Program-made: the position numbers and the translations under genes | Sequence record: NC_049946.1 | Length of the DNA stretch: 49,168 nt | Strand: one strand, 5' to 3' | Origin: Escherichia phage 4A7 | Shown: positions 7,104 through 29,920 of the stretch, piece after piece | How positions within the stretch are numbered: position 1 is the stretch's first letter | Layout: each line of letters begins with the position of its first letter | Notes under the pieces: model-generated | What the model saw: the letters and a program-made list of their open reading frames with translations, nothing else | Database searches by the model: none | What the model was told of the DNA's origin: nothing

Positions 7104-7132
7104 CGGGGGCGAAATGCCCCCGTGTCTTTTTT
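7104..7132 (+). terminator. putative intrinsic terminator/attenuator after the major capsid gene
   Basis: 7-bp GC stem CGGGGGC/GCCCCCG with loop GAAAT, followed by TGTCTTTTTTCAC, 9 nt after the E stop codon. Confidence 0.4.
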
Positions 7133-7146
7133 CACAGGGGGCTGAT

Positions 7147-7867: not shown

Positions 7868-7878
7868 AAGGGGGATGT

Positions 7879-8457: not shown

Positions 8458-8849
8458 AACATACAGAACTCCGTGCAGCCGTACTGGATGCACTGGAAAA
8501 ACATGACACCGGGGCGACGCTTTTTGATGGTCGCCCCGCTGTTTTTGATGAGGAGGATTTTCCGGCAGTTGCCGTTTATCTCACCGGCGCTGAATACACG
8601 GGCGAAGAGCTGGACAGCGATACCTGGCAGGCGGAGCTGCATATTGAAGTTTTCCTGCCTGCTCAGGTGCCGGATTCAGAGCTGGATTCGTGGATGGAGT
8701 CCCGGATTTATCCGGTGATGAGCGATGTCCCGGCACTGTCAGATTTGATCACCAGTATGGTGGCCAGTGGCTATGACTACCGGCGCGACGATGATGCGGG
8801 CCTGTGGAGTTCAGCCGATCTGACTTATGTCATTACCTATGAAATGTGA
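8454..8849 (+). CDS. U: tail terminator protein gpU
   Basis: 131 aa with the lambda gpU position and length; ATGA overlap with the Z stop. Confidence 0.85.
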
Positions 8850-8856
8850 GGACGAT

Positions 8857-9597
8857 ATGCCTGTACCAAATCCAGTAATGCCGGTGAAAGGGGCCGGGAC
8901 CACACTGTGGGTTTATAAGGGGAACGGTGACCCTTATGCGAACCCGCTTTCAGACGTTGACTGGTCGCGTCTGGCTAAAGTTAAAGACCTGACGCCCGGC
9001 GAACTGACCGCTGAGTCCTATGACGACAGCTATCTCGATGATGAAGATGCGGACTGGACTGCGACCAGGCAGGGGCAGAAATCTGCCGGAGATACCAGCT
9101 TCACGCTGGCGTGGATGCCCGGAGAGCAGGGGCAGCAGGCGCTGCTGGCGTGGTTTAATGAAGGGGATACCCGTGCCTATAAAATCCGCTTCCCGAACGG
9201 CACGGTCGATGTGTTCCGCGGCTGGGTCAGCAGTATCGGTAAGGCGGTGACGGCGAAGGAAGTGATCACCCGCACGGTGAAAGTCACCAACGTGGGACGT
9301 CCGTCGATGGCAGAAGATCGCAGCACGGTGACGGCGACAACCGGCATGACGGTGACACCCGCCAGTGCTTCCGTAGTGAAAGGGCAGAGCACTACGCTGA
9401 CCGTGGCATTCCAGCCGGAGGGCGCAACCGACAAGAGCTTCCGTGCGGTGTCTGCGGATAAAACAAAAGCCACCGTGTCGGTCAGCGGTATGACCATCAC
9501 CGTGAACGGCGTTGCTGCAGGCAAGGTCAACATTCCGGTTGTATCCGGTAATGGTGAGTTTGCTGCGGTTGCAGAAATCACCGTCACCGCCAGTTAA
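8857..9597 (+). CDS. V: major tail tube protein gpV with C-terminal Ig-like domain
   Basis: From [22 protein letters not shown] onward it is near-identical to lambda gpV as recalled. ATG at 8857 follows a GAGG RBS. Confidence 0.9.
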
Positions 9598-9612
9598 TCC
9601 GGAGAGTCAGCG

Positions 9613-10035
9613 ATGTTCCTGAAAACCGAATCATTTGAATATAACGGCGTGACCGTCACGCTTTCTGAACTGTCAGCCCTGCAGCGTATTGAGCATCTCG
9701 CCCTGATGAAACGGCAGGCAGAACAGGCGGAGTCAGACAGCAACCGGAAGTTTACTGTGGAAGACGCCATCAGAACCGGCGCGTTTCTGGTGGCGATGTC
9801 CCTGTGGCATAACCATCCGAAGAAGACGCAGATGCCGTCCATGAATGAAGCCGTTAAACAGATTGAGCAGGAAGTGCTTACCACCTGGCCCACAGAGGCA
9901 ATTTCTCATGCTGAAAACGTGGTGTACCGGCTGTCCGGTATGTATGAGTTTGTGGTGAATAATGCCCCCGAACAGGCAGAGGACGCCGGGCCTGCAGAGC
10001 CTGTTTCTGCGGGAAAGTGTTCGACGGTGAGCTGA
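9613..10035 (+). CDS. G: tail assembly chaperone gpG
   Basis: 140 aa in the lambda G position; ends shortly after the slippery heptamer. Confidence 0.85.
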   Translation: MFLKTESFEYNGVTVTLSELSALQRIEHLALMKRQAEQAESDSNRKFTVEDAIRTGAFLVAMSLWHNHPKKTQMPSMNEAVKQIEQEVLTTWPTEAISHAENVVYRLSGMYEFVVNNAPEQAEDAGPAEPVSAGKCSTVS

Positions 10036-10451
10036 GTTTTGCCCTGAAACTGGCGCGTGAGATGGGGCGACCCGACTGGCGCGCCATGCTTGCCGGGATG
10101 TCATCCACGGAGTATGCCGACTGGCACCGCTTTTACAGTACCCATTATTTTCATGATGTTCTGCTGGATATGCACTTTTCCGGGCTGACGTACACCGTGC
10201 TCAGCCTGTTTTTCAGCGATCCGGATATGCATCCGCTGGATTTCAGTCTGCTGAACCGGTGTGAGGCTGACGAAGAGCCTGAAGGTGATGTGCTGATGCA
10301 GAAAGCGGCAGGGCTTGCCGGAGGTGTTCGTTTTGGTCCGGACGGGAATGAAGTTATCCCCGCCTCCCCGGATGTGGCGGACATGACGGAGGATGACGTA
10401 ATGCTGATGACAGTATCAGAAGGGATCGCAGGAGGAGTCCGGTATGGCTGA
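9613..10451 (+). CDS. T: tail assembly chaperone G-T fusion, made by a programmed -1 ribosomal frameshift at 10011-10017
   Basis: The T frame (listed ORF 10017-10451) has no plausible independent start (its first codon is GTG inside the slip site) and overlaps the G 3' end, as in lambda G/GT. Confidence 0.75.
10011..10017 (+). other. -1 frameshift slippery heptamer G GGA AAG
   Basis: GGGAAAG read as G|GGA|AAG in the G frame, 6 codons before the G stop; the same heptamer as the lambda G-T slip site. Confidence 0.7.
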
Positions 10452-13005
10452 ACCGGTAGGCGATCTGGTCGTTGATTTAAGTCTGGATGCGGCCAGATTT
10501 GACGAGCAGATGGCCAGAGTCAGGCGTCATTTTTCCGGTACGGAAAGTGATGCGAAAAAAACAGCGGCAGTCGTTGAACAGTCAATGAACCGACAGGCGC
10601 TGGCTGCACAGAAAGCGGGGATTTCCGTCGGGCAGTATAAAGCCGCCATGCGTATGCTGCCTGCACAGTTCACCGACGTGGCCACGCAGCTTGCAGGCGG
10701 GCAAAGCCCGTGGCTGATCCTGCTGCAACAGGGTGGTCAGGTTAAGGACTCCTTCGGCGGGATGATCCCCATGTTCAGGGGGCTTGCCGGTGCGATCACC
10801 CTGCCGATGGTCGGGGCCACCTCGCTGGCGGTGGCGACCGGTGCGCTGGCGTATGCCTGGTATCAGGGTAACTCAACCCTGTCCGATTTCAACAAAACGC
10901 TGGTCCTTTCCGGTCATCAGTCGGGTCTGACGGCAGATCGTATGCTGGTCCTGTCCAGAGCCGGGCAGGCGGCAGGGCTGACGTTTAACCAGACCAGCGA
11001 GTCACTCAGTGCACTGGTTAAGGCGGGGGTAAGCGGTGAGGCTCAGATTGTGTCCATCAGCCAGAGTGTGGCGCGTTTCTCCTCTGCATCCGGCGTGGAG
11101 GTGGACAAGGTCGCTGAAGCCTTCGGGAAGCTGACCACAGACCCGACGTCGGGGCTGACGGCGATGGCACGTCAGTTCCATAACGTGACGGCGGAGCAGA
11201 TTGCGTATGTTGCTCAGTTGCAGCGTTCCGGCGATGAAGCCGGGGCATTGCAGGCGGCGAACGAGGCCGCAACGAAAGGGTTTGATGACCAGACCCGCCG
11301 CCTGAAAGAGAACATGGGCACGCTGGAGACCTGGGCAGACAGGACCGCACGGGCATTCAAATCCATGTGGGATGCGGTGCTGGATATTGGTCGTCCTGAT
11401 ACCGCGCAGGAGATGCTGATTAAGGCAGAGGCCGCGTTTAAGAAAGCAGACGATATCTGGAATCTGCGCAAGGATGATTATTTTGTTAACGATGAAGCAC
11501 GGGCGCGTTACTGGGATGATCGTGAAAAGGCCCGTCTTGCGCTTGAAGCCGCCCGAAAGAAGGCTGAACAGCAGAGTCAACAGGACAAAAATGCGCAGCA
11601 GCAGAGCGATACCGAAGCGTCACGGCTGAAATATACCGAAGAGGCGCAGAAGGCTTACGAACGCCTGCAGACACCGCTGGAGAAATATACCGCCCGCCAG
11701 GAAGAACTGAACAAGGCACTGAAAGACGGGAAAATCCTGCAGGCGGATTACAACACGCTGATGGCGGCGGCGAAAAAGGACTATGAAGCGACGCTGAAAA
11801 AGCCGAAGCAGTCCGGCGTGAAGGTGTCTGCGGGCGATCGTCAGGAAGACAGTGCTCATGCTGCCCTTCTGACGCTTCAGGCAGAACTCCGGACGCTGGA
11901 GAAGCATGCCGGAGCGAATGAGAAAATCAGCCAGCAGCGCCGGGATTTGTGGAAAGCGGAAAATCAGTTCGCAGTACTGGAGGAGGCAGCACAACGTCGC
12001 CAGCTGTCTGCACAGGAGAAATCCCTGCTGGCGCATAAAGATGAGACGCTGGAGTACAAACGCCAGCTGGCTGCACTTGGCGACAAGGTTACGTATCAGG
12101 AGCACCTGAACGCGCTGGCGCAGCAGGCGGATAAATTCGCACAGCAGCAACGGGCAAAACGGGCCGCCATTGATGCGAAAAGCCGGGGGCTGACTGACCG
12201 GCAGGCAGCGCGGGAAGCCACGGAACAGCGCCTGAAGGAGGAGTATGGCGATAATCCGCTGGCGCTGAATAACGTCATGTCAGAGCAGAAAAAGACCTGG
12301 GTGGCTGAAGACCAGCTTCGCGGGAGCTGGATGGCAGGCCTGAAGTCCGGCTGGAGTGAGTGGGAAGAGAGCGCCACGGACAGTATGTCGCAGGTAAAAA
12401 GTGCAGCCACGCAGACCTTTGATGGTATTGCACAGAATATGGCGGCGATGCTGACCGGTAGTGAGCAGAACTGGCGCAGCTTCACCCGTTCCGTGCTGTC
12501 CATGATGACAGAAATTCTGCTTAAGCAGGCAATGGTGGGGATTGTCGGGAGTATCGGCAGCGCCATTGGCGGGGCTGTTGGTGGCGGCGCATCCGCGTCA
12601 GGCGGTACAGCCATTCAGGCCGCTGCGGCGAAATTCCATTTTGCAACTGGAGGATTTACGGGAACCGGCGGCAAATATGAGCCAGCGGGGATTGTTCACC
12701 GTGGTGAATTTGTCTTCACGAAGGAGGCAACCAGCCGGATTGGCGTGGGGAATCTCTACCGGCTGATGCGCGGCTATGCCACCGGCGGTTATGTCGGTAC
12801 ACCGGGCAGCATGGCAGACAGCCGGTCGCAGGCGTCCGGGACGTTTGAGCAGAATAACCATGTGGTGATTAACAACAACGGCACGAACGGGCAGATTGGG
12901 CCACAGGCGCTGAAGGCTGTGTATGACATGGCCCGCAAGGGTGCCCGTGATGAAATTCAGGCACAGATGCGTGATGGTGGCTTGTTATCCGGAGGTGGAC
13001 GATGA
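10444..13005 (+). CDS. H: tail tape measure protein gpH
   Basis: 853 aa (the lambda H length) in the conserved position between GT and M; coiled-coil-rich with a Gly-rich C-terminal segment. Confidence 0.9.
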   Translation: MAEPVGDLVVDLSLDAARFDEQMARVRRHFSGTESDAKKTAAVVEQSMNRQALAAQKAGISVGQYKAAMRMLPAQFTDVATQLAGGQSPWLILLQQGGQVKDSFGGMIPMFRGLAGAITLPMVGATSLAVATGALAYAWYQGNSTLSDFNKTLVLSGHQSGLTADRMLVLSRAGQAAGLTFNQTSESLSALVKAGVSGEAQIVSISQSVARFSSASGVEVDKVAEAFGKLTTDPTSGLTAMARQFHNVTAEQIAYVAQLQRSGDEAGALQAANEAATKGFDDQTRRLKENMGTLETWADRTARAFKSMWDAVLDIGRPDTAQEMLIKAEAAFKKADDIWNLRKDDYFVNDEARARYWDDREKARLALEAARKKAEQQSQQDKNAQQQSDTEASRLKYTEEAQKAYERLQTPLEKYTARQEELNKALKDGKILQADYNTLMAAAKKDYEATLKKPKQSGVKVSAGDRQEDSAHAALLTLQAELRTLEKHAGANEKISQQRRDLWKAENQFAVLEEAAQRRQLSAQEKSLLAHKDETLEYKRQLAALGDKVTYQEHLNALAQQADKFAQQQRAKRAAIDAKSRGLTDRQAAREATEQRLKEEYGDNPLALNNVMSEQKKTWVAEDQLRGSWMAGLKSGWSEWEESATDSMSQVKSAATQTFDGIAQNMAAMLTGSEQNWRSFTRSVLSMMTEILLKQAMVGIVGSIGSAIGGAVGGGASASGGTAIQAAAAKFHFATGGFTGTGGKYEPAGIVHRGEFVFTKEATSRIGVGNLYRLMRGYATGGYVGTPGSMADSRSQASGTFEQNNHVVINNNGTNGQIGPQALKAVYDMARKGARDEIQAQMRDGGLLSGGGR

Positions 13006-15407: not shown

Positions 15408-18400
15408 ATGGGTAAAGGCAGCAGTAAGGGGCATACCCCGCGCGAAGCGAAGGACAACCTGAAGTCCACGCAGTTGCTGAGTGTGATCGATGCCATCAGC
15501 GAAGGGCCGATAGAAGGTCCGGTGGATGGATTAAAAAGCGTGCTGCTGAACAGTACACCGGTGCTGGACAGTGAGGGAAATACCAACATCTCCGGCGTCA
15601 CGGTGGTGTTCCGGGCAGGTGAGCAGGAGCAGACACCGCCGGAGGGATTTGAATCCTCCGGTTCCGAGACGGTGCTGGGTACGGAAGTGAAATATGACAC
15701 GCCGATCACCCGCACCATTACGTCTGCAAACATCGACCGTCTGCGCTTTACCTTCGGTGTGCAGGCACTGGTGGAAACCACTTCAAAGGGGGACCGTAAT
15801 CCGTCGGAAGTCCGCCTGCTGGTTCAGATACAGCGTAACGGTGGCTGGGTGACGGAAAAAGACATAACCATTAAGGGCAAAACCACCTCGCAGTATCTGG
15901 CCTCGGTGGTGGTGGATAACCTGCCTCCGCGCCCGTTCAATATCCGGATGCGCAGGATGACACCGGACAGCACCACAGACCAGCTGCAGAACAAAACGCT
16001 CTGGTCGTCATACACCGAAATCATCGATGTGAAACAGTGCTACCCGAACACGGCACTGGTCGGCGTGCAGGTGGACTCGGAACAGTTCGGCAGCCAGCAG
16101 GTGAGCCGTAATTATCATCTTCGCGGGCGCATTCTGCAGGTGCCGTCGAACTATAACCCGCAGACGCGGCAATACATCGGTATCTGGGACGGGACGTTTA
16201 AACCGGCATACAGCAACAACATGGCCTGGTGTCTGTGGGATATGCTGACCCACCCGCGCTACGGCATGGGTAAACGTCTTGGTGCGGCAGATGTGGATAA
16301 ATGGGCGCTGTATGTCATCGGCCAGAATTGCGACCAGTCGGTGCCGGACGGTTTTGGCGGCACGGAGCCGCGCATCACCTGTAACGCTTACCTGACCACA
16401 CAGCGCAAGGCGTGGGATGTGCTCAGTGATTTCTGCTCGGCGATGCGCTGTATGCCGGTATGGAACGGGCAGACGCTGACGTTCGTGCAGGACCGGCCAT
16501 CGGATAAGGTGTGGACCTATAACCGCAGTAATGTGGTGATGCCGGAAGATGGCGCGCCGTTCCGCTACAGCTTCAGCGCCCTGAAGGACCGTCATAATGC
16601 CGTTGAGGTGAACTGGATTGACCCGGATAACGGCTGGGAGACGGCGACAGAGCTTGTGGAGGACACGCGGGCCATTGCCCGTTACGGTCGTAATGTCACG
16701 AAGATGGACGCCTTTGGCTGTACCAGCCGGGGGCAGGCACACCGAGCCGGGCTGTGGCTGATTAAAACGGAGCTGCTGGAAACGCAGACCGTGGACTTTA
16801 GCGTGGGTGCTGAAGGGCTTCGCCATGTACCGGGCGATGTCATTGAAATCTGCGATGATGACTATGCCGGTATCAGCACCGGCGGGCGCGTGCTGGCGGT
16901 GAACAGCCAGACCCGGACGCTGACGCTCGACCGTGAAATCACGCTGCCATCCTCCGGCACCACGCTGATAAGCCTGGTTGACGGGCAGGGTAATCCGGTG
17001 AGCGTGGAGGTTCAGTCCGTCACCGACGGCGTGAAGGTGAAAGTGAGCCGGGTTCCTGACGGCGTTGCCGAATACAGCGTGTGGGGGCTGAAGCTGCCGA
17101 CGCTGCGCCAGCGCCTGTTCCGCTGTGTGAGTATCCGTGAGAATGACGACGGTACGTATGCCATCACCGCCGTGCAGCATGTACCGGCAAAAGAGGCCAT
17201 CGTGGATAACGGGGCGCACTTTGACGGCGACCAGAGCGGAACGGTAAACGGTGTCACGCCGCCAGCAGTACAGCACCTGACCGCAGAAGTCACCGCAGAC
17301 AGCGGGGAATACCAGGTGCTGGCGCGCTGGGATACGCCGAAGGTGGTGAAGGGGGTGAGCTTTATGCTTCGCCTGACCGTGGCAGCGGATGACGGCAGTG
17401 AGCGGCTGGTCAGCACGGCCCGGACGACGGAAACCACATACCGCTTCACGCAACTGGCGCTGGGAAACTACAGGCTGACAGTCCGGGCGGCAAATGCCTG
17501 GGGGCAGCAGGGCGATCCGGCATCGGTATCGTTCCGTATTGCCGCACCGGCAGCGCCGTCGCGGATTGAGCTGACGCCGGGCTATTTTCAGATCACCGCC
17601 ACGCCGCATCTTGCCGTTTATGATCCGACGGTACAGTTTGAGTTCTGGTTCTCGGAAAAGCGGGTTGCGGATATCAGGCAGGTTGAAACTACAGCCCGCT
17701 ATCTTGGCACGGCGCTGTACTGGATAGCTGCCAGTATCAATATCAAGCCGGGCCATGATTATTATTTTTATATCCGCAGTGTGAATACTGTTGGCAAATC
17801 GGCATTCGTGGAGGCTGTCGGTCGGGCGAGCGATGATGCGGAAGGTTACCTGGATTTTTTCAAAGGCCAGATAACCGAATCCCATCTCGGCAAGGAGCTG
17901 CTGGAAAAAGTCGAGCTGACGGAGGATAACGCCAGCAAACTGGAGGAGTTCTCGAAAGAGTGGAAAGACGCCAACGATAAATGGAATGCCATGTGGGGTG
18001 TCAAAATTGAGCAGACCGAAGACGGCAAACATTATGTCGCGGGGCTTGGCCTCAGCATGGAGGATACAGAGGAAGGCAAACTGAGCCAGTTCCTGGTTGC
18101 CGCTAACCGTATCGCGTTTATTGACCCGGCAAACGGGAATGAAACGCCGATGTTTGTGGCGCAGGGCAACCAGATATTCATGAACGAAGTGTTCCTGAAG
18201 TATCTGACGGCTCCCACCATTACCAGCGGCGGCAATCCGCCGGTATTTTCCCTGACACCGGACGGGCGGCTGACGGCGAAAAATGCCGATATCAGCGGTA
18301 ACGTGAATGCGAACTCCGGGACGCTCAATAATGTCACGATTAACCAGAACTGTCGGATTATGGGAAAACTGTCTGCCAACCAGATTGAAGGTGATATTGT

Positions 18401-18806
18401 CAAAACGGTGGGAAAAGCCTTTCCGAGAAATGGCAGTTATGCCAGCGGTACAATAACGGTCACTGTGTACGATGACCAGGCTTTTGACCGTCAGATAGTA
18501 ATCCCACCCGTTCTGTTTCGCGGTGGTAAGCATGAAAACTTCAACAGCAACAACCAACAGTCATACTGGTATTCAACCTGTAAGCTGCAGGTACTGAAGA
18601 ACGGACAGGAAATCTTTCAGCAACCCGCGACGGATGTCAGCAGGGTATTTTCATCAGTCATTGATATGCCTGCCGGACACGGCCATGTCACCCTGACTTT
18701 CAATGTTTCTTCATATGGTGCTAATAACTGGACGCCAACGACCAGTATCAGCGACCTTCTTGTTGTTGTGATGAAGAAATCTACAGCCGGTATCAGTATC
18801 AGTTGA
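15408..18806 (+). CDS. J: central tail fibre / host specificity protein gpJ
   Basis: 1132 aa (the lambda J length); fibronectin-like middle region; GAGG RBS before the ATG. Confidence 0.9.
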
Positions 18807-18864
18807 ATTTTATAACCCAGATACGGGTGCCAGAAATGGCGCCTTTTTTATTTGTGGAGTGAAT

Positions 18865-20793
18865 ATGGCAGTACAGATTTCAGGCGTGCTGAAAGACGGT
18901 GCAGGAAAACCGATACAGAACTGCACCATTCAGCTCAAAGCAAAACGTAACAGCACCACGGTTGTGGTGAACACGGTGGCCTCAGAAAATCCGGATGAAG
19001 CCGGACGTTACAGCATGGATGTCGAGTATGGCCAGTACAGCGTTATCCTGCTGGTTGAAGGTTTTCCGCCTTCACATGCCGGGACCATCACCGTGTATGA
19101 GGATTCTAAGCCGGGGACGCTGAATGATTTTCTGGGGGCCATGACGGAAGAGGATGTCATGCCGGAGGCATTGCGTCGTTTTGAGGTAATGGTGGAGGAT
19201 GTGGCACGCAACGCTGAAGCCGCCTCTCAGAGCGCAGCGGCAGCAAAGAAATCAGAAACAGCAGCGGCATCGTCCAGGAACGCGGCGAAAACATCAGAGA
19301 CGAATGCAGGTAACAGCGCGAAAGCGGCAGCTTCTTCAAAAACAGCCGCACAAAACGCAGCAACAGCGGCAGAACGTTCAGAGACAAATGCCCGTGCGTC
19401 AGAAGAAGCCTCCGCAGACAGTGAAGAGGCTTCCCGCCGTAATGCAGAGTCAGCCGCTGAAAATGCCGGAGTCGCCACCACAAAAGCGCGGGAGGCTGCA
19501 GCAGACGCAACAAAGGCCGGGCAGAAAAAGGATGAGGCTCTGTCGGCAGCGACACGAGCTGAAAAGGCGGCAGACCGCGCAGAAGCCGCAGCGGAAGTGA
19601 CTGCAGAGCCCTATGCGAATATAGTGCCGCCGCTGCCTGATGTGTGGATACCGTTTAACGATTCACTGGATATGATTGCGGGTTTTTCTCCGGGCTATAA
19701 AAAAATAGCTATTGGTGACGATGTGGTTCAGGTCGCCAGTGATAAACAGGTTAATTTCAGTCGCGCATCAACGGCAACATATATCAACAAATCTGGCGAA
19801 CTGAAAACGGCGGAAATTAATGAGCCGCGATTTGAGTGTGATGGCCTGCTTATTGAGGGACAAAGAACGAACTACATGCTCAATTCGGAAAGTCCAGCCA
19901 GCTGGGGGAAGTCATCAAACATGGATGTGCCCGAAACTGGGACGGATAGTTTTGGTTTTACTTATGGAAAGTTTGTCTGCAACGATTCTCTGGTTGGGCA
20001 AACTTCGGCTATTAATATGGCATCAATTGCTGCAACAAAGTCAGTTGATGTCTCAGGCGATAACAAGTACGTGACAACCTCATGCCGTTTTAAAACAGAA
20101 CGACAGGTAAGGTTACGTATACGGTTTGATAAGTATGATGGTAGTGCAACAACTTTTCTTGGCGATGCGTACATTGATACGCAAACGCTTGAAATTAATA
20201 TGACAGGTGGTGCTGCCGGCAGAATTACGGCACGAGTCAGGAAGGATAAGACCACGGGCTGGATTTTTGCAGAGGCAACGATTCAGGCAATTGATGGTGA
20301 GTTAAAAATAGGCTCTCAGATACAGTATTCTCCTGAGCAGGGTGGGGCAACAGTATCTGGTGACTATATTTATCTTGCCACCCCACAAGTAGAGAATGGG
20401 CCGTGTGTATCATCATTTATTATTTCAGGAGGCAGCGCAACGACAAGAGCCAGTGATTTGGTTAGTATCCCCACCAGAAATAATCTTTATAAGTTACCAT
20501 TTACTTTTTTACTTGAGATTCATAAAAACTGGGATATTGCACCAAACGCCGCACCCCGCGTGTGGGATATAGCAGCCAATACCGGGCAATCAGCAATTGC
20601 AGCAATCAACAGAGGTAGTGGTAAGTTATATATGAGTCTGTCAAACCCTTCAGGCTCGTATGTTAATAGCGCAGCGACAGATGTATTTGCAGAGAAAACC
20701 ACATTTGGATGTATTGCAAAAGCTGATGGTCACTTTCATGTGGTGACAAATGGTAAAGCGGTTAATGAAGTTTATTGTGAATATAATGGGTAA
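18865..20793 (+). pseudogene. stf: side tail fibre gene stf, 3'-truncated by the IS66-family insertion (the stop codon is supplied by the IS end)
   Basis: N-terminus matches lambda Stf as recalled (MAVQISGVLKDGAGKPIQNCTIQLKAKRNSTTVVVNTV...GRYSMDVEYGQYSVIL), then an Ala-rich repeat region. The reading frame resumes after the IS at 23322. Confidence 0.8.
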
Positions 20794-20874
20794 GCGTAAA
20801 CTGACCGCCGTATGTAGCCATCAGACGAGAATTGGTAACTTAGACGCCCATCTGATATAGACGGACATCTAAGT

Positions 20875-21300
20875 ATGGAATTACAGGACTGGCGAAAAGA
20901 ACCTCGTAAAAACTATTCGAATGAATTCAAACTTCGTATGGTGGAACTGGCATCACAACCTGGAGCTTGTGTTGCACAGATTGCACGTGAAAATGGCGTC
21001 AATGATAATGTTATTTTCAAATGGCTCAGGCTCTGGCAGAACGAAGGGCGTGTTTCGCGGCGTCTTCCGGTAACGACCTCTTCTGACACTGGCGTTGAAT
21101 TATTACCTGTAGAAATAACGCCGGATGAGCAGAAAGAACCTGTGGCGGCCATTGCGCCGTCTTTATCCACTTCCACTCAGACCAGAGTCAGTGCCAGTTC
21201 CTGCAAGGTGGAATTCCGTCACGGTAACATGACGCTGGAAAATCCATCGCCAGAGCTGCTCACAGTGTTGATCCGTGAACTGACCGGGAGGGGAAGATGA
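20875..21300 (+). CDS. tnpA: IS66-family accessory protein TnpA (Orf1)
   Basis: First ORF of the IS66-type triad; HTH-like N-terminus. Confidence 0.8.
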   Translation: MELQDWRKEPRKNYSNEFKLRMVELASQPGACVAQIARENGVNDNVIFKWLRLWQNEGRVSRRLPVTTSSDTGVELLPVEITPDEQKEPVAAIAPSLSTSTQTRVSASSCKVEFRHGNMTLENPSPELLTVLIRELTGRGR

Positions 21301-21647
21301 TCTCACTCCCATCAGGTACCCGTATCTGGCTCGTTGCCGGCGTTACCGATATGCGTAAATCCTTCAACGGACTGGGAGAACAGGTACAACATGTGCTGAA
21401 TGATAATCCCTTCTCCGGTCACCTGTTTATCTTCCGTGGCCGACGGGGTGACACCGTCAAAATTCTTTGGGCTGATGCTGATGGTCTGTGCCTGTTCACC
21501 AAACGCCTGGAGGAAGGCCAGTTTATCTGGCCTGCGGTACGTGACGGCAAGGTATCCATTACCCGCTCGCAACTGGCAATGCTCCTCGATAAGCTGGACT
21601 GGCGTCAGCCAAAAACATCCAGCCGTAACTCACTGACAATGTTGTAA
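21297..21647 (+). CDS. tnpB: IS66-family Orf2 (TnpB)
   Basis: 116-aa ORF overlapping tnpA (ATGA), typical of IS66 orf2. Confidence 0.8.
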   Translation: MISLPSGTRIWLVAGVTDMRKSFNGLGEQVQHVLNDNPFSGHLFIFRGRRGDTVKILWADADGLCLFTKRLEEGQFIWPAVRDGKVSITRSQLAMLLDKLDWRQPKTSSRNSLTML

Positions 21648-21677
21648 AAAACTCCTGACCGCATTATAAAAACGGTC

Positions 21678-23291
21678 ATGAGTCAGAAATACCTCATTCG
21701 CATCGCAGAGCTGGAAAGGTTGCTCTCTGAGCAGGCTGAAGCCCTCCGTCAGAAAGACCAGCAACTGAGTCTGGTTGAAGAGACGGAAGCCTTCCTGCGC
21801 TCTGCACTGACACGTGCCGAAGAAAAGATCGAAGAAGATGAACGGGAAATAGAACATCTGCGGGCTCAGATAGAAAAACTGCGCCGGATGCTGTTCGGTA
21901 CCCGTTCTGAAAAACTGCGTCGTGAAGTTGAACTGGCTGAGGCTCTGCTGAAACAACGTGAACAGGACAGCGATCGTTACAGTGGGCGGGAAGACGATCC
22001 TCAGGTTCCCCGCCAGTTGCGACAGTCGCGCCATCGTCGTCCGTTACCGGCACACCTTCCCCGTGAAATACACCGCCTGGAGCCAGAAGAAAGCTGTTGC
22101 CCGGAGTGTGGCGGTGAGCTGGATTATCTGGGGGAAGTCAGCGCTGAACAGCTGGAACTGGTGAGCAGTGCCCTGAAAGTGATCCGCACAGAACGGGTAA
22201 AAAAAGCCTGTACAAAATGTGACTGTATTGTTGAAGCACCGGCGCCGTCCCGCCCGATAGAGCGTGGTATCGCGGGCCCCGGATTACTTGCCCGCGTGTT
22301 AACGGGAAAATACTGCGAACATCTGCCACTGTATCGTCAGAGTGAAATCTTTGCCCGCCAGGGTGTCGAACTGAGCCGGGCCTTACTCTCCAACTGGGTT
22401 GACGCGTGCTGCCAGTTAATGACACCGGTGAATGATGCCCTGTACCGTTATGTAATGAATACCCGCAAGGTTCACACTGATGACACACCGGTAAAGGTAC
22501 TGGCACCGGGTCAGAAAAAGGCGAAAACAGGGCGTATCTGGACGTATGTCCGGGATGATCGCAATGTGGGTTCGTCATCTCCTCCAGCGGTCTGGTTCGC
22601 GTACTCGCCGAACCGGCAGGGGAAACACCCGGAGCAACACCTCCGCCCCTTCCGGGGTATCCTGCAGGCGGATGCGTTCACAGGTTACGACAGGTTGTTC
22701 AGTGCAGAACGTGAAGGTGGTGCACTGACAGAAGTTGCGTGCTGGGCCCATGCCCGGCGAAAAATCCACGATGTATACATCAGCAGCAAAAGTGCGACGG
22801 CAGAAGAAGCCCTGAAGCGAATCAGTGAACTGTACGCCATCGAGGATGAAATACGGGGATTACCGGAGTCAGAGCGTCTTGCCGTCAGGCAGCAGCGAAG
22901 CAAAGTGTTACTGACGTCGCTGCATGAATGGATGGTGGAGAAGAATGGTACGCTGTCGAAAAAATCCAGACTGGGCGAAGCGTTCAGCTATGTACTGAAT
23001 CAGTGGGATGCCCTCTGTTATTACAGTGATGACGGTCTGGCGGAGGCGGATAATAATGCTGCGGAAAGAGCGCTTCGTGCAGTCTGTCTCGGAAAGAAAA
23101 ACTTTATGTTCTTTGGCAGCGATCACGGCGGCGAGCGTGGAGCACTGTTGTACGGGCTGATCGGCACCTGCCGTCTGAACGGTATCGATCCGGAAGCGTA
23201 TCTGCGCCATATCCTGAGCGTACTGCCGGAATGGCCTTCCAACCGAGTTGACGAACTCCTGCCATGGAACGTAGTACTCACCAATAAATAA
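21678..23291 (+). CDS. tnpC: IS66-family transposase (TnpC)
   Basis: 537 aa with an N-terminal coiled coil/leucine zipper, a CxxC...CxxC zinc motif and a DDE-type core; position and size typical of IS66 TnpC. Confidence 0.85.
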   Translation: MSQKYLIRIAELERLLSEQAEALRQKDQQLSLVEETEAFLRSALTRAEEKIEEDEREIEHLRAQIEKLRRMLFGTRSEKLRREVELAEALLKQREQDSDRYSGREDDPQVPRQLRQSRHRRPLPAHLPREIHRLEPEESCCPECGGELDYLGEVSAEQLELVSSALKVIRTERVKKACTKCDCIVEAPAPSRPIERGIAGPGLLARVLTGKYCEHLPLYRQSEIFARQGVELSRALLSNWVDACCQLMTPVNDALYRYVMNTRKVHTDDTPVKVLAPGQKKAKTGRIWTYVRDDRNVGSSSPPAVWFAYSPNRQGKHPEQHLRPFRGILQADAFTGYDRLFSAEREGGALTEVACWAHARRKIHDVYISSKSATAEEALKRISELYAIEDEIRGLPESERLAVRQQRSKVLLTSLHEWMVEKNGTLSKKSRLGEAFSYVLNQWDALCYYSDDGLAEADNNAAERALRAVCLGKKNFMFFGSDHGGERGALLYGLIGTCRLNGIDPEAYLRHILSVLPEWPSNRVDELLPWNVVLTNK

Positions 23292-23321
23292 GCGTCAATA
23301 CGGTGCTCCGTTGACGCTTAC

Positions 23322-23462
23322 TATAATGGCGTGACCGCTGATAAAAATATCCGATTTGGAGGGCAGACGAATACTGGAGAACGACATCTGTTTGGCCATA
23401 TTCGCAATTTCCGCATATGGCATAAAGAATTAAATGACAGGCAATTAAAAGAGGTCGTATGA
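23322..23462 (+). pseudogene. stf: displaced 3' end of stf (43 codons) downstream of the IS
   Basis: After removing the IS and one TSD copy, the stf frame continues (GVTADKNIRF...LKEVV) to a TGA at 23460-23462 that overlaps the ATG of the next gene. Confidence 0.6.
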
Positions 23463-23737
23463 AAGATTTAACTTTGAAGTTTCATGACAAACTGCAGTTT
23501 AAGGCCTTCCTGTCATCTCTTGGCTGGGCGGAAGATGAAGACCTCCAGAATAAACTGTTAGTTGATGAAATTGGTTTCACCTACACAGAAACAGGGGTAA
23601 CAGAAGAGGGAGAACCTGTCTGTATCCGGAATGATGGTTATTTTGTCAACATTCGCATTCTTGATGACTTGTTTGATGTTTCTGTATTCTCTGATTATGT
23701 CGTGGAGCTGGAAACACCGCTTCGGGAATGGAGCTGA
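23459..23737 (+). CDS. hypothetical protein, translationally coupled to the original stf stop (possible small tail-fibre chaperone)
   Basis: 92-aa ORF with AAGAGG RBS; its ATG overlaps the native stf stop (ATGA). No recognised homologue. Confidence 0.45.
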   Translation: MKDLTLKFHDKLQFKAFLSSLGWAEDEDLQNKLLVDEIGFTYTETGVTEEGEPVCIRNDGYFVNIRILDDLFDVSVFSDYVVELETPLREWS

Positions 23738-23749
23738 AAGGAGGAAATA

Positions 23750-24043
23750 ATGGATATAAGCCCCTTACTTCATGCACTTTGTGCTGTGGCTGCGCAGATA
23801 CTGGTTGGTCTTTTTACCGGAAACTGGGCTTACGGAGCGATAGCCGGTTGTACGTTCTTCATTGCGCGTGAACATACCCAGGCAGAATATCGCTGGATTG
23901 AAATGTTCGGGCATGGCAAGCGAATGAATATGCCGTGGTGGGGCGGTTTTGATCCGCGTGCTTGGGATGTGGCAAGCCTGATGGATTTTGCTGTGCCGGT
24001 GGTGGCGTGTCTGCTGGTCTGGCTGTTGGTTAATCGTGGGTGA
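23750..24043 (+). CDS. hypothetical small membrane protein
   Basis: 97-aa ORF with a strong AGGAGG RBS and two hydrophobic segments. Confidence 0.45.
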   Translation: MDISPLLHALCAVAAQILVGLFTGNWAYGAIAGCTFFIAREHTQAEYRWIEMFGHGKRMNMPWWGGFDPRAWDVASLMDFAVPVVACLLVWLLVNRG

Positions 24044-24134
24044 AAAAAGGTGAGCTGTATATGCAACGGAGGAAGAAACCCCGTTGCTGGAAGCCAGGAA
24101 AAAGTATCGGGTGTTGCTGTCCTCGGATGTTGTG

Positions 24135-24992
24135 CTAATTGGGTGATAACAGATCCTGTGTATGGGAGTTTCCCTTTTTGCGTGCGTTGATGCTGGTAAC
24201 GGCAAACGTCATGATGAACAAAACCGCGAATAAGACGACAATCGTCGGAGCTGGTGCGCTGTCGATAAAAAAGGACAACCAGACACCAGTCATTGACACT
24301 ATTACCGATATGCCAGTCGCCAGTAGGAGCGCAATATGAAAGCGTTGTGTCAGGAGTACCGCAATGGCGCCAGGCGCAATGAGCAGAGAAATGGAGAGAA
24401 TGATACCTACCGCTTTCAGCGTCGCCACAATGGTCAGAGAGACCATGCACAGCAGCCCATAATGCAGCCATCTCGTATGCAAACCGCTTACCTGCGCCTG
24501 TTGATAATCAAAGCTGAACAGCAAAAAATCCCGCCATTTTACGCTAATAACAAGTGTAACCAGCCCGGCAATAATCATCGTCTGGATTATATCGCCGATG
24601 GTTATCCCGAGCATGTCGCCGAAAAGAATATGGTCAAGATGTACGTCTGGTTTGACTGCAATATACAAGATCAGACCTGCGGCAAACATGCCAGAAAAAA
24701 CAATCCCCATCACTGTATCTTGCTTGATTCGGCTGTTGTCTTTCAGGTATCCCGTCGCCACCGCGCAGAATACTCCGGCGACGAATGCCCCTGTAGCCAA
24801 AGGTAACCCCAGAATCCAGGCAAGCACGATGCCAGGAAAAACCGCATGACTCATCGCGTCACCCATCAGTGCCCAACCTTTCAGGACCAGAAAGACCGAC
24901 AGCAGCGCACAGGGTATGGAAACTACCAGTGAAATCAGCAGTGCGTGACTCATAAAGGTGAACTGCAGTGGCTCCAGTAATAATGCCATCAT
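24135..24992 (-). CDS. sitD: Mn/Fe ABC transporter permease SitD
   Basis: 285-aa polytopic membrane protein, last gene of the sitABCD-type operon, overlapping sitC. Confidence 0.85.
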   Translation of the reverse strand: MMALLLEPLQFTFMSHALLISLVVSIPCALLSVFLVLKGWALMGDAMSHAVFPGIVLAWILGLPLATGAFVAGVFCAVATGYLKDNSRIKQDTVMGIVFSGMFAAGLILYIAVKPDVHLDHILFGDMLGITIGDIIQTMIIAGLVTLVISVKWRDFLLFSFDYQQAQVSGLHTRWLHYGLLCMVSLTIVATLKAVGIILSISLLIAPGAIAVLLTQRFHIALLLATGISVIVSMTGVWLSFFIDSAPAPTIVVLFAVLFIMTFAVTSINARKKGNSHTQDLLSPN

Positions 24993-25846
24993 GAGCGATC
25001 CTCCAGCGCCTTATGCGCACGCCGACGATTTGCCAAAAGCCCATGGGTGGGCGCAAAGACAAATGCTAAAAGAAACAGCAGTGTCTGCGCCACCACGATG
25101 ATTCCACCTGTCGCGCCGTCCAGAAAGTAACTGACCCACGCGCCGAGGAAACTGGTTACACTGCCAATAGTTACAGCAATCATGAGCAGGCGGGGAAAAC
25201 GATCGGTTAACAACCATGCTGTTGCACCGGGAGTCACCACCAGACAGATCACCAGAAAGGCACCAACCGTTTGCAGCGCCGCAACGGTCGAAACCGACAG
25301 CAGGGTGAAGAAGAGGAGTTTTAATCTGCCCGGATGCAATCCAATAGCACGGGCGTGATTCTCGTCGAAAAAGGTCACCATAAGATCTTTCCATTTGAAA
25401 AAAAGCACGATGATCGAGAGAATGCCAATGATAGTGAGTTGCAGGATATCCGCCGGATCGATTGCCAGAATATTGCCCAGGACGATGGTCTGAATGTTCA
25501 CAGATGTCGGGTTCAATGACACCATAAACAGCCCCAGGCCAAAAAAGGACGAGAAGATCAGACCGATGATGGCATCTTCTTTTAAGCGGGTGCGTTGGTT
25601 AAGAAACAGCATGCTGCCCGCAGCCAGTCCGCCGGAAAAGAAGGCTCCCAGAGAAAACGGAAGCCCCAGCATATATGCCCCCGCAACACCCGGGACAATA
25701 GAGTGCGACAACGCATCGCCAATCAGCGACCAGCCTTTTAGCATCAGATAGCATGACAGGAAAGCGCAGAGACCGCCGACCATCGCCGAGACCCACATCG
25801 CATTGAGCATATATTCATAGCTGAAGGGTTCCAGTAGCACGTTCAT
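24989..25846 (-). CDS. sitC: Mn/Fe ABC transporter permease SitC
   Basis: 285-aa polytopic membrane protein, paralogous to sitD; overlaps sitB. Confidence 0.85.
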
Positions 25847-26670
25847 CTTTCTTCCCTCTGCACCGCTGACGGTCGATGAGCCACAAAAGGGCGTTCATCG
25901 TCAGTAATAATGCTTTCTTCCGAGCCGTTAAGTGTGACATGGCGCAGTACGCCGCTAAAAGCCAGCTCTAGGTTCTCGGCTGTAAAAGTGGTGTCTGTCG
26001 GCCCGCTTGCCAGGACGGTGCCTTTGACCATGACCGTATAATCGCAAAATGTCGTGACGGATCCGAGATTGTGTGTTGAGACAAGCATCGTTTTGCCTTC
26101 CGCGCGTAACTCCCTCAACAGGCTGATGATTTTGGCTTCGGTTTTCACATCAACGCCAGTAAAAGGTTCATCCAGCAGGATCACATCACCCTGCTGTGCA
26201 ATCGCTCTCGCCAGAAAGACGCGTTTCTTTTGTCCACCGGAAAGCTCGCCGATTTGTCGATGGCGAAAATTCACCATATCGACACGTTCCAGCGCATCGG
26301 TGACAATTTGACGATCCCTCTTTTTGGCGATACGCAACATACCCATATGCCCATAGCGGCCCATCATCACCACATCTTCCACCAGTACAGGAAATGACCA
26401 GTCAACCTCTTCTGACTGAGGGACGTAGGCAACCAGGTTTTTCTGTAACGCCTGTCGCGTGGGAATACCCAGAACAGATATCTTTCCGCTGGTCAGACGC
26501 ACAAATCCCATAATCGCTTTAAACAACGTCGATTTTCCGGAACCGTTTACCCCAACCAGAGCGGCAATAGATCCACTTGGTACTGTGAAGGATGCATCGC
26601 GCAGTGCTGTGTGCCCGTTATGCCAGGTGACAGCAACATCATTAACGACAATGCCTGCAGATTGCATCAT
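25843..26670 (-). CDS. sitB: Mn/Fe ABC transporter ATP-binding protein SitB
   Basis: Walker [13 protein letters not shown] signature LSGGQKKR, Walker B ILLDEP. Confidence 0.9.
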
Positions 26671-27584
26671 TATTTCTCCCTTTTCCCGGCTTTAATTCCC
26701 TGTACCAGCGTACTGGTAGTAACCTTAAGAAGGTCGATATACGTCGGTACCGGGCCGTTTTCTGTGCTCAGGGAATCGACATAGAGCACACCGCCGTAGT
26801 GTGCGCCGGTTTCACGCGCAACCTGACGCGCTGGTTTATCGGAAATCGTACTCTCGCTAAAGACTGCCGGGATATGATTTTTCTTAACTATATCAACAAC
26901 CTTACGTACCTGCTGCGGTGTTCCTTGTTGATCGGCATTAATCGGCCACAGATAAAGCTCTTTTAGCCCCAAATCGCGTGCGAGATAAGAAAAAGCCCCT
27001 TCACTGGTGACCATCCATCGCTGATTCTCAGGGAGTTCCGTAATCTGCTTACGCAGGGGGGCAAGGGTTTGGGTAATCTTGGCTTTATAAGTATCGGCAT
27101 TGCGTTGGTAGGTTTGTGCATTTGCCGGATCGTATTTTATCAACGCATCACGAATATTATCGACGTAAATCAGAGCATTATCTGGCGACATCCATGCATG
27201 GGGGTTAGGTTTGCCCTCATAGGGTCCTTCGGTGATCCCTACAGGCGTCACACCCGAAGAGACAATTACTTCTGGAACCCCATTGAGATGCTGGTAAAAG
27301 CGTTGGAACCACAATTCCAGATTCATACCATTGGCGAGAATCAGTTGTGCCCCCTGCGCACGTTTAATATCGCCAGGGGTAGGCTGATACTCATGAATTT
27401 CTGCACCAGGCTTGGTTATGGATGAGACTTCTGCAGCATCTCCCGCCACGTTTTTGGCCATATCCGCGATGATGGTAAATGTTGTAATGACCTTAAATTT
27501 TTCAGTTGCACTTGCCTGAAATGCGATCGAGCAGGTGAGTGCGAGGCCCCCCAAGAGCATGGTTACTTTTTTTATTGAGCGCAT
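26670..27584 (-). CDS. sitA: periplasmic Mn/Fe-binding protein SitA
   Basis: 304 aa with signal peptide; cluster-9 (MntC/YfeA/SitA-type) solute-binding protein; first gene of the operon. Confidence 0.9.
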
Positions 27585-27616
27585 AATTTAGTACCTATAG
27601 TGAGCAAAATTAGAAC

Positions 27617-27638
27617 AAACATAGCAACGGCTATGTTT
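27617..27638. promoter_or_regulatory. MntR operator-like palindrome in the sitA promoter
   Basis: Perfect 9-bp inverted repeat with 4-bp spacer, AAACATAGC-AACG-GCTATGTTT, 33-54 bp upstream of the sitA start. Confidence 0.6.
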
Positions 27639-27660
27639 TATAGCATAACCTATACAGAAT

Positions 27661-27679
27661 GAAAATGATTATCATTAAC
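27661..27679. promoter_or_regulatory. Fur box
   Basis: GAAAATGATTATCATTAAC matches the Fur consensus GATAATGATAATCATTATC at about 16 of 19 positions; upstream of sitA. Confidence 0.65.
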
Positions 27680-27687
27680 ATCTTTGA

Positions 27688-28017
27688 GGCCCAAAACAGG
27701 GATTAGTTTGTTTCCTGCTGGATGAAAGGACTCTTGGGATAGCACATGCCGCACGAAGAGCAGCATTACATGATGTTTTGTCGAATGAGCTACGAATCCT
27801 GATAGAAATACGAAACAAGCTAGCACATGGACAATGGATCTATCCCTTCAATAATGAAGGAAATACTGTGGACCCTGATAAATATAAATTAATCAATAAA
27901 GAAAACTTGCAGTCACTCCAATTCAAATATTCATTAGCACAGCATTTAGTTGACGCTGTACATGATTTGGTTGTAAGTCCTACGACATTCGAACGAGATT
28001 TCGAAAGCCATTTTTAA
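27688..28017 (+). pseudogene. 5'-truncated gene remnant (open frame without a canonical start)
   Basis: AT-rich reading frame open from the stop at 27685 to 28017 with no ATG near its 5' end (the listed 79-aa ORF starts at TTG); it abuts the sit promoter. Confidence 0.35.
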
Positions 28018-28499
28018 AAATTATATCAAGTACGAACAAACTTAGTGACAAAAGACTACGAAAAATATAAAACAATTTTAGTATTAAGTAGAGAGAAATT
28101 TCGTTCTGCTAGGACGCAGCAATAGGTTCATGAGATTCTCTGATACTTGTTACCTTAGTAAGCCTTAAATTTTTAAAAATTCTTTTACGTCCACTCCTCG
28201 CTCATAACAGGCATTAACTACATTTATCTTCATTGGCTATGCAAGTCGTAATAAAAGGTGGGACAAAACTGAGACACATAAGCTCTCACAAAGGTCTGCA
28301 AGGCCTCACATGTATTGAGATGTTAATAAAATGTAGACTTGTAATTTTGATATAAATGGTAGATAAAACCTTTCCCCAAAATAAAAACGAACGTCAATGA
28401 AATCAAATGGTTGAATAAAGTTGATTTTGGCTAATAAAAAAACAATAAAATAATTTTTATTATTAAATATCAATGACTTAAACTTAATGTTTTTATATA

Positions 28500-28664
28500 C
28501 TGCTGCGCCATATGGGTTGGACTGAAGCGGCTGACCTGATTGTTAAAGGTATGGAAGGCGCAATCAACGCCAAGACCGTAACCTATGACTTCGAACGTCT
28601 GATGGAAGGCGCTAAACTGCTGAAATGTTCAGAGTTTGGTGATGCGATCATCAAGAATATGTAA
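28500..28664 (+). other. icd: phage-borne 3' end of icd (isocitrate dehydrogenase), the core of attP
   Basis: In-frame translation [54 protein letters not shown] matches the Icd C-terminus as recalled. e14 and phage 21 integrate into icd and carry a replacement 3' end. Confidence 0.85.
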
Positions 28665-28687
28665 TCACTACATGTGTTAAATATTGA

Positions 28688-28715
28688 AACGGGCGTATAA
28701 CACGCCCGTTGTTTT
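28688..28715 (+). terminator. intrinsic terminator after the icd 3' end
   Basis: Stem AACGGGCG/CGCCCGTT with loop TATAACA, followed by GTTTT. Confidence 0.7.
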
Positions 28716-28777: not shown

Positions 28778-29920
28778 CTATGCTGTTTTGATATCTACGA
28801 TAATCCAGTCTTTACCACGATCATCATTGTATCGGTCGGTCATTTTTCTGGATTTATGGCCTAACAACTTTTGCGTATCCAGACCCTGTTCCCGATATAA
28901 CCGTTCTGACAGAGATCGCTGCTCATGAAATGTGGGCGCAGTTCCTTGCTCCCATTTTATGCCACATTTTTCCCTGGCCTTTTTAAAAGCCGTTGTCAGA
29001 GTATTCGCAGAAACCTGGTCTCCTCTGTTTGCTTGAGAGGTTGTGTGACGGTAATGGACCAGATATTTACTAACAACAGCATCCCTGCACTGAGATATAA
29101 CTTCACGAAGGGTAATATTCAGAGCATCGCATTTCAGGTTAAGCGGAATAGCAAGTTTTGAACCGGTTTTTTCCTGAGTAATGTGCAACATGTCGTCCCA
29201 GATATCAGAGAATTTCAAATTGCAGATATCGCCTAAACGTTGTCCAGTGACAAGAGCAAGTAGCATCCCGCATTTTAAATAGGGCTGCCGTCTGCTTACG
29301 CTGTCAAATATTGCCTGCCATTCGGGCAGTGATAATCTTTGGCGGTTTACTCGATTTCGCGGTTGTTTTGTTGCCTGCGCTGGGTTAAATCCTGGCGGAA
29401 CATGTCCTGCGTGTTGTGCTTCTTTGAAGACGTCGATTAACACCATTCTCACGACTTGCGCCATCCTGTTATGACCTTCAGCCTTTACAGCATCAATTAT
29501 TTCGGCAATATCAAGTGCGGTAATATCCTTGAGGTGTTGCATTCCACAATGCTCACGGAAAAGACGAATGGGTTTGCCTTTTTGCCGATAGGAGTTGGGT
29601 CTTAGTTCATTATGTTGCAGCCTGTCCTCCTGGATAGAAATATATTTATCAAGCCATTCTGTCACCGTAATGTCTGAGCGCCTGCCTTTCATTCTTTCCA
29701 GACGCTCATTGACGCTTAATATTTGTCGGGTACGTTGTTCAGCAATAATGGTATTTGCTTCAGTAGCAACTTGTTTTGCTTCATTCTCATCAGTTCCTAA
29801 GCTATGAAAACGACCGGATAGTGGATGTTTGTATTGCCAATATACCTTTCCGGTTCGCTTATCTAATTTGCAATATAAATTGGGTATAGAGATTTTGTGA
29901 GATCGGGGTCTAGCAGCCAT
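28778..29920 (-). CDS. int: tyrosine integrase (lambda Int family, phage 21 / e14 IntE-like)
   Basis: 380 aa with a C-terminal catalytic domain (R...HxxR...Y, LLGHKSRKMTDRY); adjacent to the icd-containing attP and overlapped by xis. Confidence 0.9.
   Translation of the reverse strand: MAARPRSHKISIPNLYCKLDKRTGKVYWQYKHPLSGRFHSLGTDENEAKQVATEANTIIAEQRTRQILSVNERLERMKGRRSDITVTEWLDKYISIQEDRLQHNELRPNSYRQKGKPIRLFREHCGMQHLKDITALDIAEIIDAVKAEGHNRMAQVVRMVLIDVFKEAQHAGHVPPGFNPAQATKQPRNRVNRQRLSLPEWQAIFDSVSRRQPYLKCGMLLALVTGQRLGDICNLKFSDIWDDMLHITQEKTGSKLAIPLNLKCDALNITLREVISQCRDAVVSKYLVHYRHTTSQANRGDQVSANTLTTAFKKAREKCGIKWEQGTAPTFHEQRSLSERLYREQGLDTQKLLGHKSRKMTDRYNDDRGKDWIIVDIKTA

Follow-up and report, generated by a model that had tools for sequence, protein, structure and literature searches.

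We describe an insertion sequence (IS) of the IS66 family, similar to ISEc23, that interrupts the side tail fibre gene (stf) of Escherichia phage 4A7 (NC_049946.1). The window analysed here is the whole 49,168-nt record, read on one strand from 5' to 3', and all coordinates refer to it. It spans one full genome, circularly permuted, of a lambdoid temperate phage (genus Bievrevirus, phage 21-like), begins inside the small terminase gene and carries a λ-type cos 12-mer (GGGCGGCGACCT) at 48883. Very likely, ISEc23 transposed into a dispensable prophage gene and left a phage that is defective in its side fibres and viable.

Direct reading places the octamer TATAATGG at 20782-20789 and again at 23322-23329, and the element is the 2,532 bp between the two copies (20790-23321). 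The target duplication is exactly 8 bp long; its extension to 9 bp fails. The terminal inverted repeats, GTAAGCGTAAACTGACCGCCGTAT and ATACGGTGCTCCGTTGACGCTTAC, are 24 nt long, imperfect (83% complementary) and both begin with GTAAGCGT. Across the 49-kb window the octamer occurs three times, against 1.2 expected, with two of the three occurrences abutting the IS ends, and the left terminal repeat occurs once. An earlier note, made from the letters of this DNA alone, had placed an IS66-family insertion at these positions between identical 8-bp duplications. This was borne out base for base, including the identity of the flanking 8-mers, which we re-read as TATAATGG on both sides.

The assignment to the IS66 family is supported by a TnpC transposase, upstream tnpA and tnpB genes in overlapping or close frames, terminal repeats and the 8-bp duplication (Table 1). 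The start of tnpB overlaps the end of tnpA (ATGA). The transposase also matches the zf-IS66, LZ_Tnp_IS66 and DDE_Tnp_IS66_C families, and its PF03050 match spans profile positions 1-283 of 284. By consensus, IS66 terminal repeats are imperfect, about 20-30 bp long and start with GTAAGCG. Three genes, the overlap of tnpB with tnpA, a length of about 2.5 kb, GTAAGCG ends and 8-bp duplications are all common to the ISEc23/IS66 family and the element in the window. The element itself shows no difference from ISEc23 elsewhere; what differs is its location, inside a packaged, plaque-forming phage genome.

The ends of the element are further supported by three other Escherichia coli copies, which align with no mismatch over 2,532 bp and have the same two end bases. 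These copies occupy two other sites, each with an 8-bp duplication of its own: the copy on the SE15 plasmid pECSF1 is flanked by CGTTGGTC, and the chromosomal copies in Eco889 and WP5-S17-ESBL-10 are flanked by ATTAAATC. Along all of its 2,532 bp the IS shows 100% identity to many copies in E. coli, whose RefSeq label is 'IS66-like element ISEc23 family' transposase. Matches to the element are present in 4,796 of 5,426 complete E. coli genomes (a near-full-length copy in 2,489), with a median of three matching places per genome. All three tnp frames are intact, and identical copies lie at several loci, each with its own duplication; the occurrence of identical copies at different sites implies that the element is apparently active.

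The effect on the stf reading frame follows directly from the left end of the element. A GGAG Shine-Dalgarno sequence at 18855-18858 lies six bases ahead of the ATG at 18865, which is probably the true start of stf in preference to the GTG at 18859. With this start, the intact Stf protein has 685 residues, the truncated one 642, and the loss is 43 codons. The premature stop codon, TAA at 20791-20793, belongs to the left end of the IS (G|TAAGCG). Because the IS end itself supplies the stop, truncated Stf carries no foreign residues. In silico excision of the IS and one duplication yields a single open stf frame that stops at a TGA (23460-23462) overlapping the ATG at 23459. The earlier note had described exactly this restored frame, and its count of 43 lost codons is unchanged under the revised start. 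Its length of about 687 residues for the reconstructed protein gives way to 685. Between the upstream gene J (15408-18806) and stf we also observe a terminator-like hairpin with a T-run at 18825-18854, and the annotators of phage 21 mark a terminator at the equivalent place. If the hairpin acts as a terminator, transcription of stf and of all the genes beyond it would require late antitermination.

Uninterrupted alleles of the same gene are common. As a query for the empty site we used a 1,200-bp reconstruction of the uninterrupted sequence. E. coli A13 and CMZE120 match it at 100% identity, and it is covered to at least 80% in 452 complete E. coli genomes. A13 aligns to window positions 194-20789 and 23322-28715 at 99.88-99.91% identity. 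Because these two blocks overlap by exactly the 8-bp target, A13 represents the precise empty site; there, as in phage 21, the uninterrupted allele has a single TATAATGG. In IMG/VR, exact matches to the empty site are found in 25 contigs and the occupied junction in two. Phage 21 (OL657228, CPT_21_22) encodes an uninterrupted 686-residue 'side tail fiber' with no IS; its 1,200-bp site is 98.8% identical to the reconstruction, and the 3' portion of its stf is 97.4% identical. It shares the gene order J, stf, orf92, orf97, sitDCBA with the window, including a 4-nt overlap of stf and orf92, in a genome of 42.9 kb as against 49.2 kb. Finally, a search of 1.84 billion representative proteins returned 53 distant homologues (24-74% identity) that align across the whole C-terminal module, and all 53 stop 0-6 residues from the restored C-terminus. 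The comparison of sibling genomes that the earlier note proposed thus recovered uninterrupted alleles, and A13, phage 21, the 452 genomes, the 25 contigs and the 53 homologues together exclude the possibility that stf of related intact genomes naturally ends where the IS lies.

We further note a lesion in the same part of the gene in other E. coli. The 407-residue protein P0090, which represents a cluster of 599 sequences, has a 1-bp deletion just past the IS site, corresponding to window positions ~23331-23345 (GTGACCGCTGATAAAAAT), that changes ...GVTADKNIRF... to ...GVTAEKISDLEG... It is another lesion, independent of the IS, within the final 43 codons of stf.

Stf combines domains of different affinities. 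Its N-terminus matches phage_tail_N (PF08400) over residues 3-133 with 230.7 bits, a tail-attachment domain of the λ type, and is followed by an alanine-rich coiled coil. The middle domain (residues ~300-545) resembles a gene transfer agent (GTA) head spike fibre, with 55.7 bits to NF048003 (cut-off 36) and an E-value of 6.9e-10 to PDB 6TB9. Residues 563-682 score 24.4 bits with the Laminin_G_3 profile, under the Pfam gathering score of 27.6, and truncated Stf keeps about three quarters of this Laminin_G_3-like domain.

A first structure prediction, of P0002 with 16 close homologues aligned, reached a mean predicted local distance difference test (pLDDT) score of 52 and was discarded. The model used here is an AlphaFold monomer of P0003, a homologue with 97% identity, built on a 55-sequence alignment that includes distant representatives; its mean pLDDT is 90. 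In this model the lost 43 residues make up two strands (517-520 and 533-541) and the C-terminal helix (547-553) of the last β-sandwich, so that the cut falls inside a confidently predicted fold. The lost segment also holds 21 positions that are invariant among 16 homologues (invariant columns 650-684), while the preceding ~80 residues (about 565-645) have far fewer. A fold search with the model returned chains of the E217 and Pa193 baseplate and tail-fibre complexes, sialic-acid-binding CBM40 modules, pentraxins and the lectin-like domain of botulinum neurotoxin Hc (BoNT Hc). The CBM40, pentraxin and BoNT Hc matches have template modelling (TM) scores of 0.55-0.6 over ~155 residues, and may lie in either of the two β-sandwiches in the model.

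The earlier note had remarked that the extreme C-terminus of such fibres is often a receptor-binding or intramolecular chaperone region. The second of these roles does not fit. No Pfam match to a Peptidase_S74-type chaperone domain was found in Stf at E <= 0.01, and the lost segment instead appears to be an integral and highly conserved piece of a β-sandwich of Laminin_G_3/ConA-like type, which in the model closes with a short helix; we therefore reject it as an intramolecular chaperone. From the model, the terminal lectin-like domain would be unable to fold without the lost strands, which would leave the side fibres inactive or absent.

Stf shares with λ-type side fibres the phage_tail_N domain and the position of the gene just downstream of J (stf is the next gene, from 18865). 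In contrast, in place of the T4 gp37-like tip and the downstream Tfa (Caudo_TAP) of λ-type Stf there is a tip composed of GTA_spike_fiber and Laminin_G_3-like domains, followed by orf92 and orf97. By these domain matches, the window protein appears to be a fibre of the Stf type with a distal module of a different family. The middle domain is homologous by sequence to Rcc01080, the head spike fibre of the Rhodobacter capsulatus GTA (PDB 6TB9 and related structures). Rcc01080 is the head fibre of a gene transfer agent, whereas Stf has a λ-type N-terminus and an extra LamG-like C-terminal domain; it is this extra domain that the IS cuts, and not the Rcc01080-like part.

The phage that carries the insertion is infectious. 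Escherichia virus Lambda_4C10 (LR595861) is 100% identical to the window except for the last 282 bases (99.4% aligned), phages 1W and 3W are 100% identical to it end to end, and phage D2, a lower-quality record, is nearly identical. In these four records the IS genes are annotated merely as 'mobile element protein'. Lambda_4C10 belongs to project PRJEB31591 (Mathieu et al. 2020), a study in which plaques on MG1655 hsdR or E. coli C revealed the temperate phages that infant-gut E. coli isolates release spontaneously; those that were sequenced were plaque-purified on these hosts (Mathieu et al. 2020). Since the identical Lambda_4C10 was plaque-purified, the IS-bearing genome is packaged and infectious, and neither the truncation of stf nor its separation from the next genes blocks plaque formation on laboratory hosts. 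The genome has ~101% of the λ length; without the IS and one duplication it would measure 46,628 bp.

The insertion is also shared among many bacterial genomes. With a query that joins 200 bp of stf to 200 bp of the IS, at 100% identity, we find the exact occupied junction in 125 of the 5,426 complete E. coli genomes, as well as in the four phage records. The carriers come from humans, dogs, rivers and wastewater, and from at least Japan and the USA. They include SE15, where the prophage adjoins an icd (isocitrate dehydrogenase) fragment, and Ecol_743 and Ecol_448, which a published phylogeny places in clades A/B of sequence type 131 (ST131) (PMC5608912). The description of the insertion as recent in the earlier note holds in one sense and fails in another. 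A perfect duplication and an IS that matches other copies letter for letter make the event appear young on the scale of sequence decay, but it is not private to this phage, given the 125 genomes and four phage records. We infer that the allele has been inherited within one E. coli lineage. In SE15 the stf::ISEc23 prophage also carries an ISEc12 element (IS21 family) that splits gpJ, and the N-terminal part of its stf is split (positions 4233-10217 and 10276-12204 of the locus NC_013654 1172783-1197182); judged from these lesions the SE15 prophage is in decay, whereas the window holds an intact phage.

Table 1. Features of the interrupted stf region and the fibre-tip cassette in the window.
Feature	Position	Strand	Description
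Truncated stf	18865..20793	+	642 aa from ATG 18865 (644 aa from GTG 18859)
Target duplication, left copy	20782..20789	.	TATAATGG; octamer single-copy in the empty-site genome A13
ISEc23-like IS (IS66 family), 2,532 bp	20790..23321	+	Co-oriented with stf and the late operon
Left terminal inverted repeat (GTAAGCG...)	20790..20813	+	24 nt, 83% complementary; unique in the window
tnpA, IS66 accessory protein, 141 aa, helix-turn-helix	20875..21300	+	HTH_Tnp_1 46 bits; NF047595 IS66_ISRel24_TnpA 83 bits, cut-off 74
tnpB, IS66 accessory protein, 116 aa	21297..21647	+	PF05717 TnpB_IS66 125 bits; NF033819 120.9 bits, cut-off 50
tnpC, IS66-family DDE transposase, 537 aa, full length	21678..23291	+	DDE_Tnp_IS66 327.6 bits; NF033517 452 bits, cut-off 180
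Right terminal inverted repeat	23298..23321	-	Inverted-repeat pairing with the left end
Target duplication, right copy	23322..23329	.	TATAATGG
Orphaned stf 3' end, 43 codons (VTADKNIRFGGQTNTGERHLFGHIRNFRIWHKELNDRQLKEVV) and TGA	23331..23462	+	From excision and translation
orf92, 92 aa, phrog_1361 (function unknown)	23459..23737	+	ATG overlaps the native stf stop; AAGAGG ribosome-binding site upstream
orf97, 97 aa, phrog_1443	23750..24043	+	Third cassette member; phage 21 homologue annotated as putative membrane protein

The two genes downstream of stf form a conserved unit with the fibre tip. Neither orf92 nor orf97 matches a Pfam or NCBIfam family, and both fall in PHROGs of unknown function only. 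The fibre tip, the 92-aa gene (with a 4-nt stop/start overlap) and a gene of 96-98 aa recur together in three other settings: in a P2-like myophage, after the baseplate genes V, W, J and I and in the H/G position of P2; in a lambdoid prophage beside dinI; and in a prophage beside cdt toxin genes. We compared the cassette over window positions 19600-24043 and loci L036 (3001-5369), L039 (1-2708) and L040 (2501-5142). The identity of orf92 tracks that of the fibre tip, at 90% where the tip is 88% identical and at 62-63% where the tip is 63-74% identical. Because the three genes recur together and orf92 identity follows the tip, they behave as an exchangeable cassette in the position of a tip plus Tfa, one that the IS splits. 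At this position λ has tfa and P2 has G. The covariation with the tip also makes orf92 a candidate dedicated assembly or accessory factor of the fibre tip.

The earlier note had further proposed that the insertion uncouples the translation of the gene downstream of stf. Since the overlap of the stf stop and the orf92 start is conserved in distant contexts, such uncoupling is architecturally plausible. A scan of positions 18700-24300 for promoter and terminator consensus sequences stayed at chance level (5 against 5.8 and 5 against 5.6 expected), and so gives no support for an outward-facing IS promoter or an IS-borne terminator. As the IS and the late operon share one orientation, late transcripts would be expected to continue into tnpABC.

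Other features of the genome lie outside the cassette. Directly downstream of it, as in phage 21, is a moron on the minus strand, the sitDCBA operon for an iron/manganese ABC transporter (24135-27584); sitABCD was reported on 70% of the λ-like phages of Mathieu et al. (2020). A short icd fragment (~28512-28664) adjoins the integrase gene (28778-29920), and in SE15 and A13 an icd fragment likewise marks the sit-side prophage boundary, beside chromosomal ycgX. This would fit integration into icd, as in phage 21 and e14. The nin region (~39225-41339) includes a gene for an EmrE-like small multidrug resistance transporter and one for a 508-aa YbcK-like protein, both unrelated to the stf finding. 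In the record of a related phage, Perceval, this half of the genome has a gene annotated as a large serine recombinase, which may or may not be the counterpart of the YbcK-like gene.

These observations are best explained by the following scenario. An apparently active ISEc23-like element with its tnpA, tnpB and tnpC genes jumped into a Bievrevirus prophage akin to phage 21, ahead of the last 43 codons of stf, and made the 8-bp duplication usual for IS66. The immediate in-frame TAA at the IS end yields Stf residues 1-642 with nothing added. By the model, such a protein lacks two β-strands and the terminal helix of its distal lectin-like (Laminin_G_3/ConA-type) β-sandwich, which would leave the domain unfolded and the fibres inactive or absent, and the insertion also parts stf from orf92 and orf97. 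The phage remains viable because lambdoid infection depends on J and the side fibres are dispensable. The 49.2-kb genome is packaged with its intact IS, and the allele has presumably been inherited in one E. coli lineage, from which it is released as infectious particles.

The closest precedent for such a phage is λ PaPa, which lost its side fibres through a frameshift in stf (Hendrix and Duda 1992, cited in PMC12617516). Like the phage in the window, λ PaPa is a lambdoid phage with a natural lesion in the 3' part of stf that is still fully plaque-forming through J-dependent adsorption. The lesion in λ PaPa is a 1-bp frameshift, whereas here it is an IS insertion, so that simple reversion is unlikely. 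The tips also differ, that of λ PaPa being T4 gp37-like with Tfa and that of the window phage GTA-fibre-like with a LamG-like lectin domain, together with orf92 and orf97. The side fibres of λ speed adsorption 10-30 fold and leave the titre unchanged (PMC12617516), and loss-of-stf mutants of λ arise readily and are favoured on plates (PMC2762979).

Several points weigh against the scenario of a side-fibre-defective phage. The score of the Laminin_G_3 match (24.4) is below the gathering score (27.6), and the structural case is built on a monomer prediction of a 97%-identical homologue. Truncated Stf might still trimerise, attach through its intact N-terminus and middle domain and keep some activity, and both the assembly of a phage 21-type Stf on virions and its binding to a target are presumed. 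Late λ transcripts under Q antitermination read through terminators. Since Q-antiterminated late transcripts pass terminators and orf92 has its own Shine-Dalgarno sequence, polarity on orf92 and orf97 may be negligible. Finally, spread of the allele by infection is equally possible as vertical inheritance.

A rival reading is that truncated Stf is still functional, its last 43 residues being dispensable and the insertion silent for adsorption. In its favour, 642 of 685 residues are kept, and with them the domain for tail attachment, the coiled coil and the GTA-fibre-like middle domain in full. We consider this improbable, as the lost part includes the long strand GHIRNFRIW and the 21 positions invariant among 16 homologues, the equivalent strand of P0003 lies in a sandwich modelled at ~pLDDT 90, and all 53 distant homologues keep the segment to within six residues of the end. 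An origin of the IS in a collapsed repeat or a wrong join during assembly, for which nothing speaks beyond the trouble that IS copies generally cause in short-read assembly, is effectively refuted: the identical junction turns up in 125 complete genomes (most of them from long reads), in the records of four phages, sequenced independently in two laboratories, and in two IMG/VR contigs, and a perfect 8-bp duplication is the product of real transposition.

The λ precedent leaves room for a further question, namely whether stf::ISEc23 is a selected, maintained fibre-loss allele in an otherwise intact inducible phage and not a product of neutral decay. Slower adsorption could aid spread in dense or structured populations, or could spare the phage futile re-adsorption to lysogens and debris. 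In favour of selection, Lambda_4C10, 1W and 3W are otherwise intact and form plaques, P0090 has its independent 1-bp deletion in the same 43 codons, and in λ the mutants without stf are favoured on plates. Against selection, the SE15 prophage, with ISEc12 in gpJ and a split stf N-terminus, resembles ordinary decay, at least in some hosts, and the uninterrupted allele is far commoner, in 452 as against 125 complete genomes and in 25 as against two IMG/VR contigs. On balance we regard selected loss as unlikely.

Dispensable prophage genes routinely acquire IS insertions. GenBank and RefSeq already contain the IS, the insertion and the phage, including annotation of the IS genes, and the event is an ordinary one of a known, textbook kind. 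We found no paper that describes this insertion in the literature on ISEc23 with tail fiber, Lambda_4C10, the OM4754xx accessions or phage 21 stf/sitABCD; the genome announcement of phage 21 does not discuss stf, and the urinary coliphage paper makes no mention of 1W, 3W or D2. In a survey, 92% of phage genomes were devoid of IS, and phages were argued to be poor IS vectors (PMC3429520). A plaque-forming temperate phage with a complete IS is, by that report, uncommon, and bears on the transfer of IS between hosts by phages. The junction can readily serve to mark the lineage of a group of E. coli genomes, ST131 clade A/B references among them. Phage 21 and other uninterrupted relatives can be set beside the IS-bearing phage as a natural comparison for studying the function of a tip that is not of the λ type and its two partner genes, and the cassette of tip, orf92 and orf97 is the most useful by-product of the analysis. 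We raise tentatively, as a doubtful possibility, that the stf::ISEc23 phage may be a maintained and possibly selected fibre-less variant and not a stage of prophage decay, at once an infectious carrier of an intact, active IS66-family element to new E. coli and a natural knock-out of the cassette. If this were true, the IS would have knocked out an uncharacterised LamG-tip/orf92/orf97 cassette that moves between λ-like and P2-like phages, where it stands in for the classical pair of tip and Tfa.

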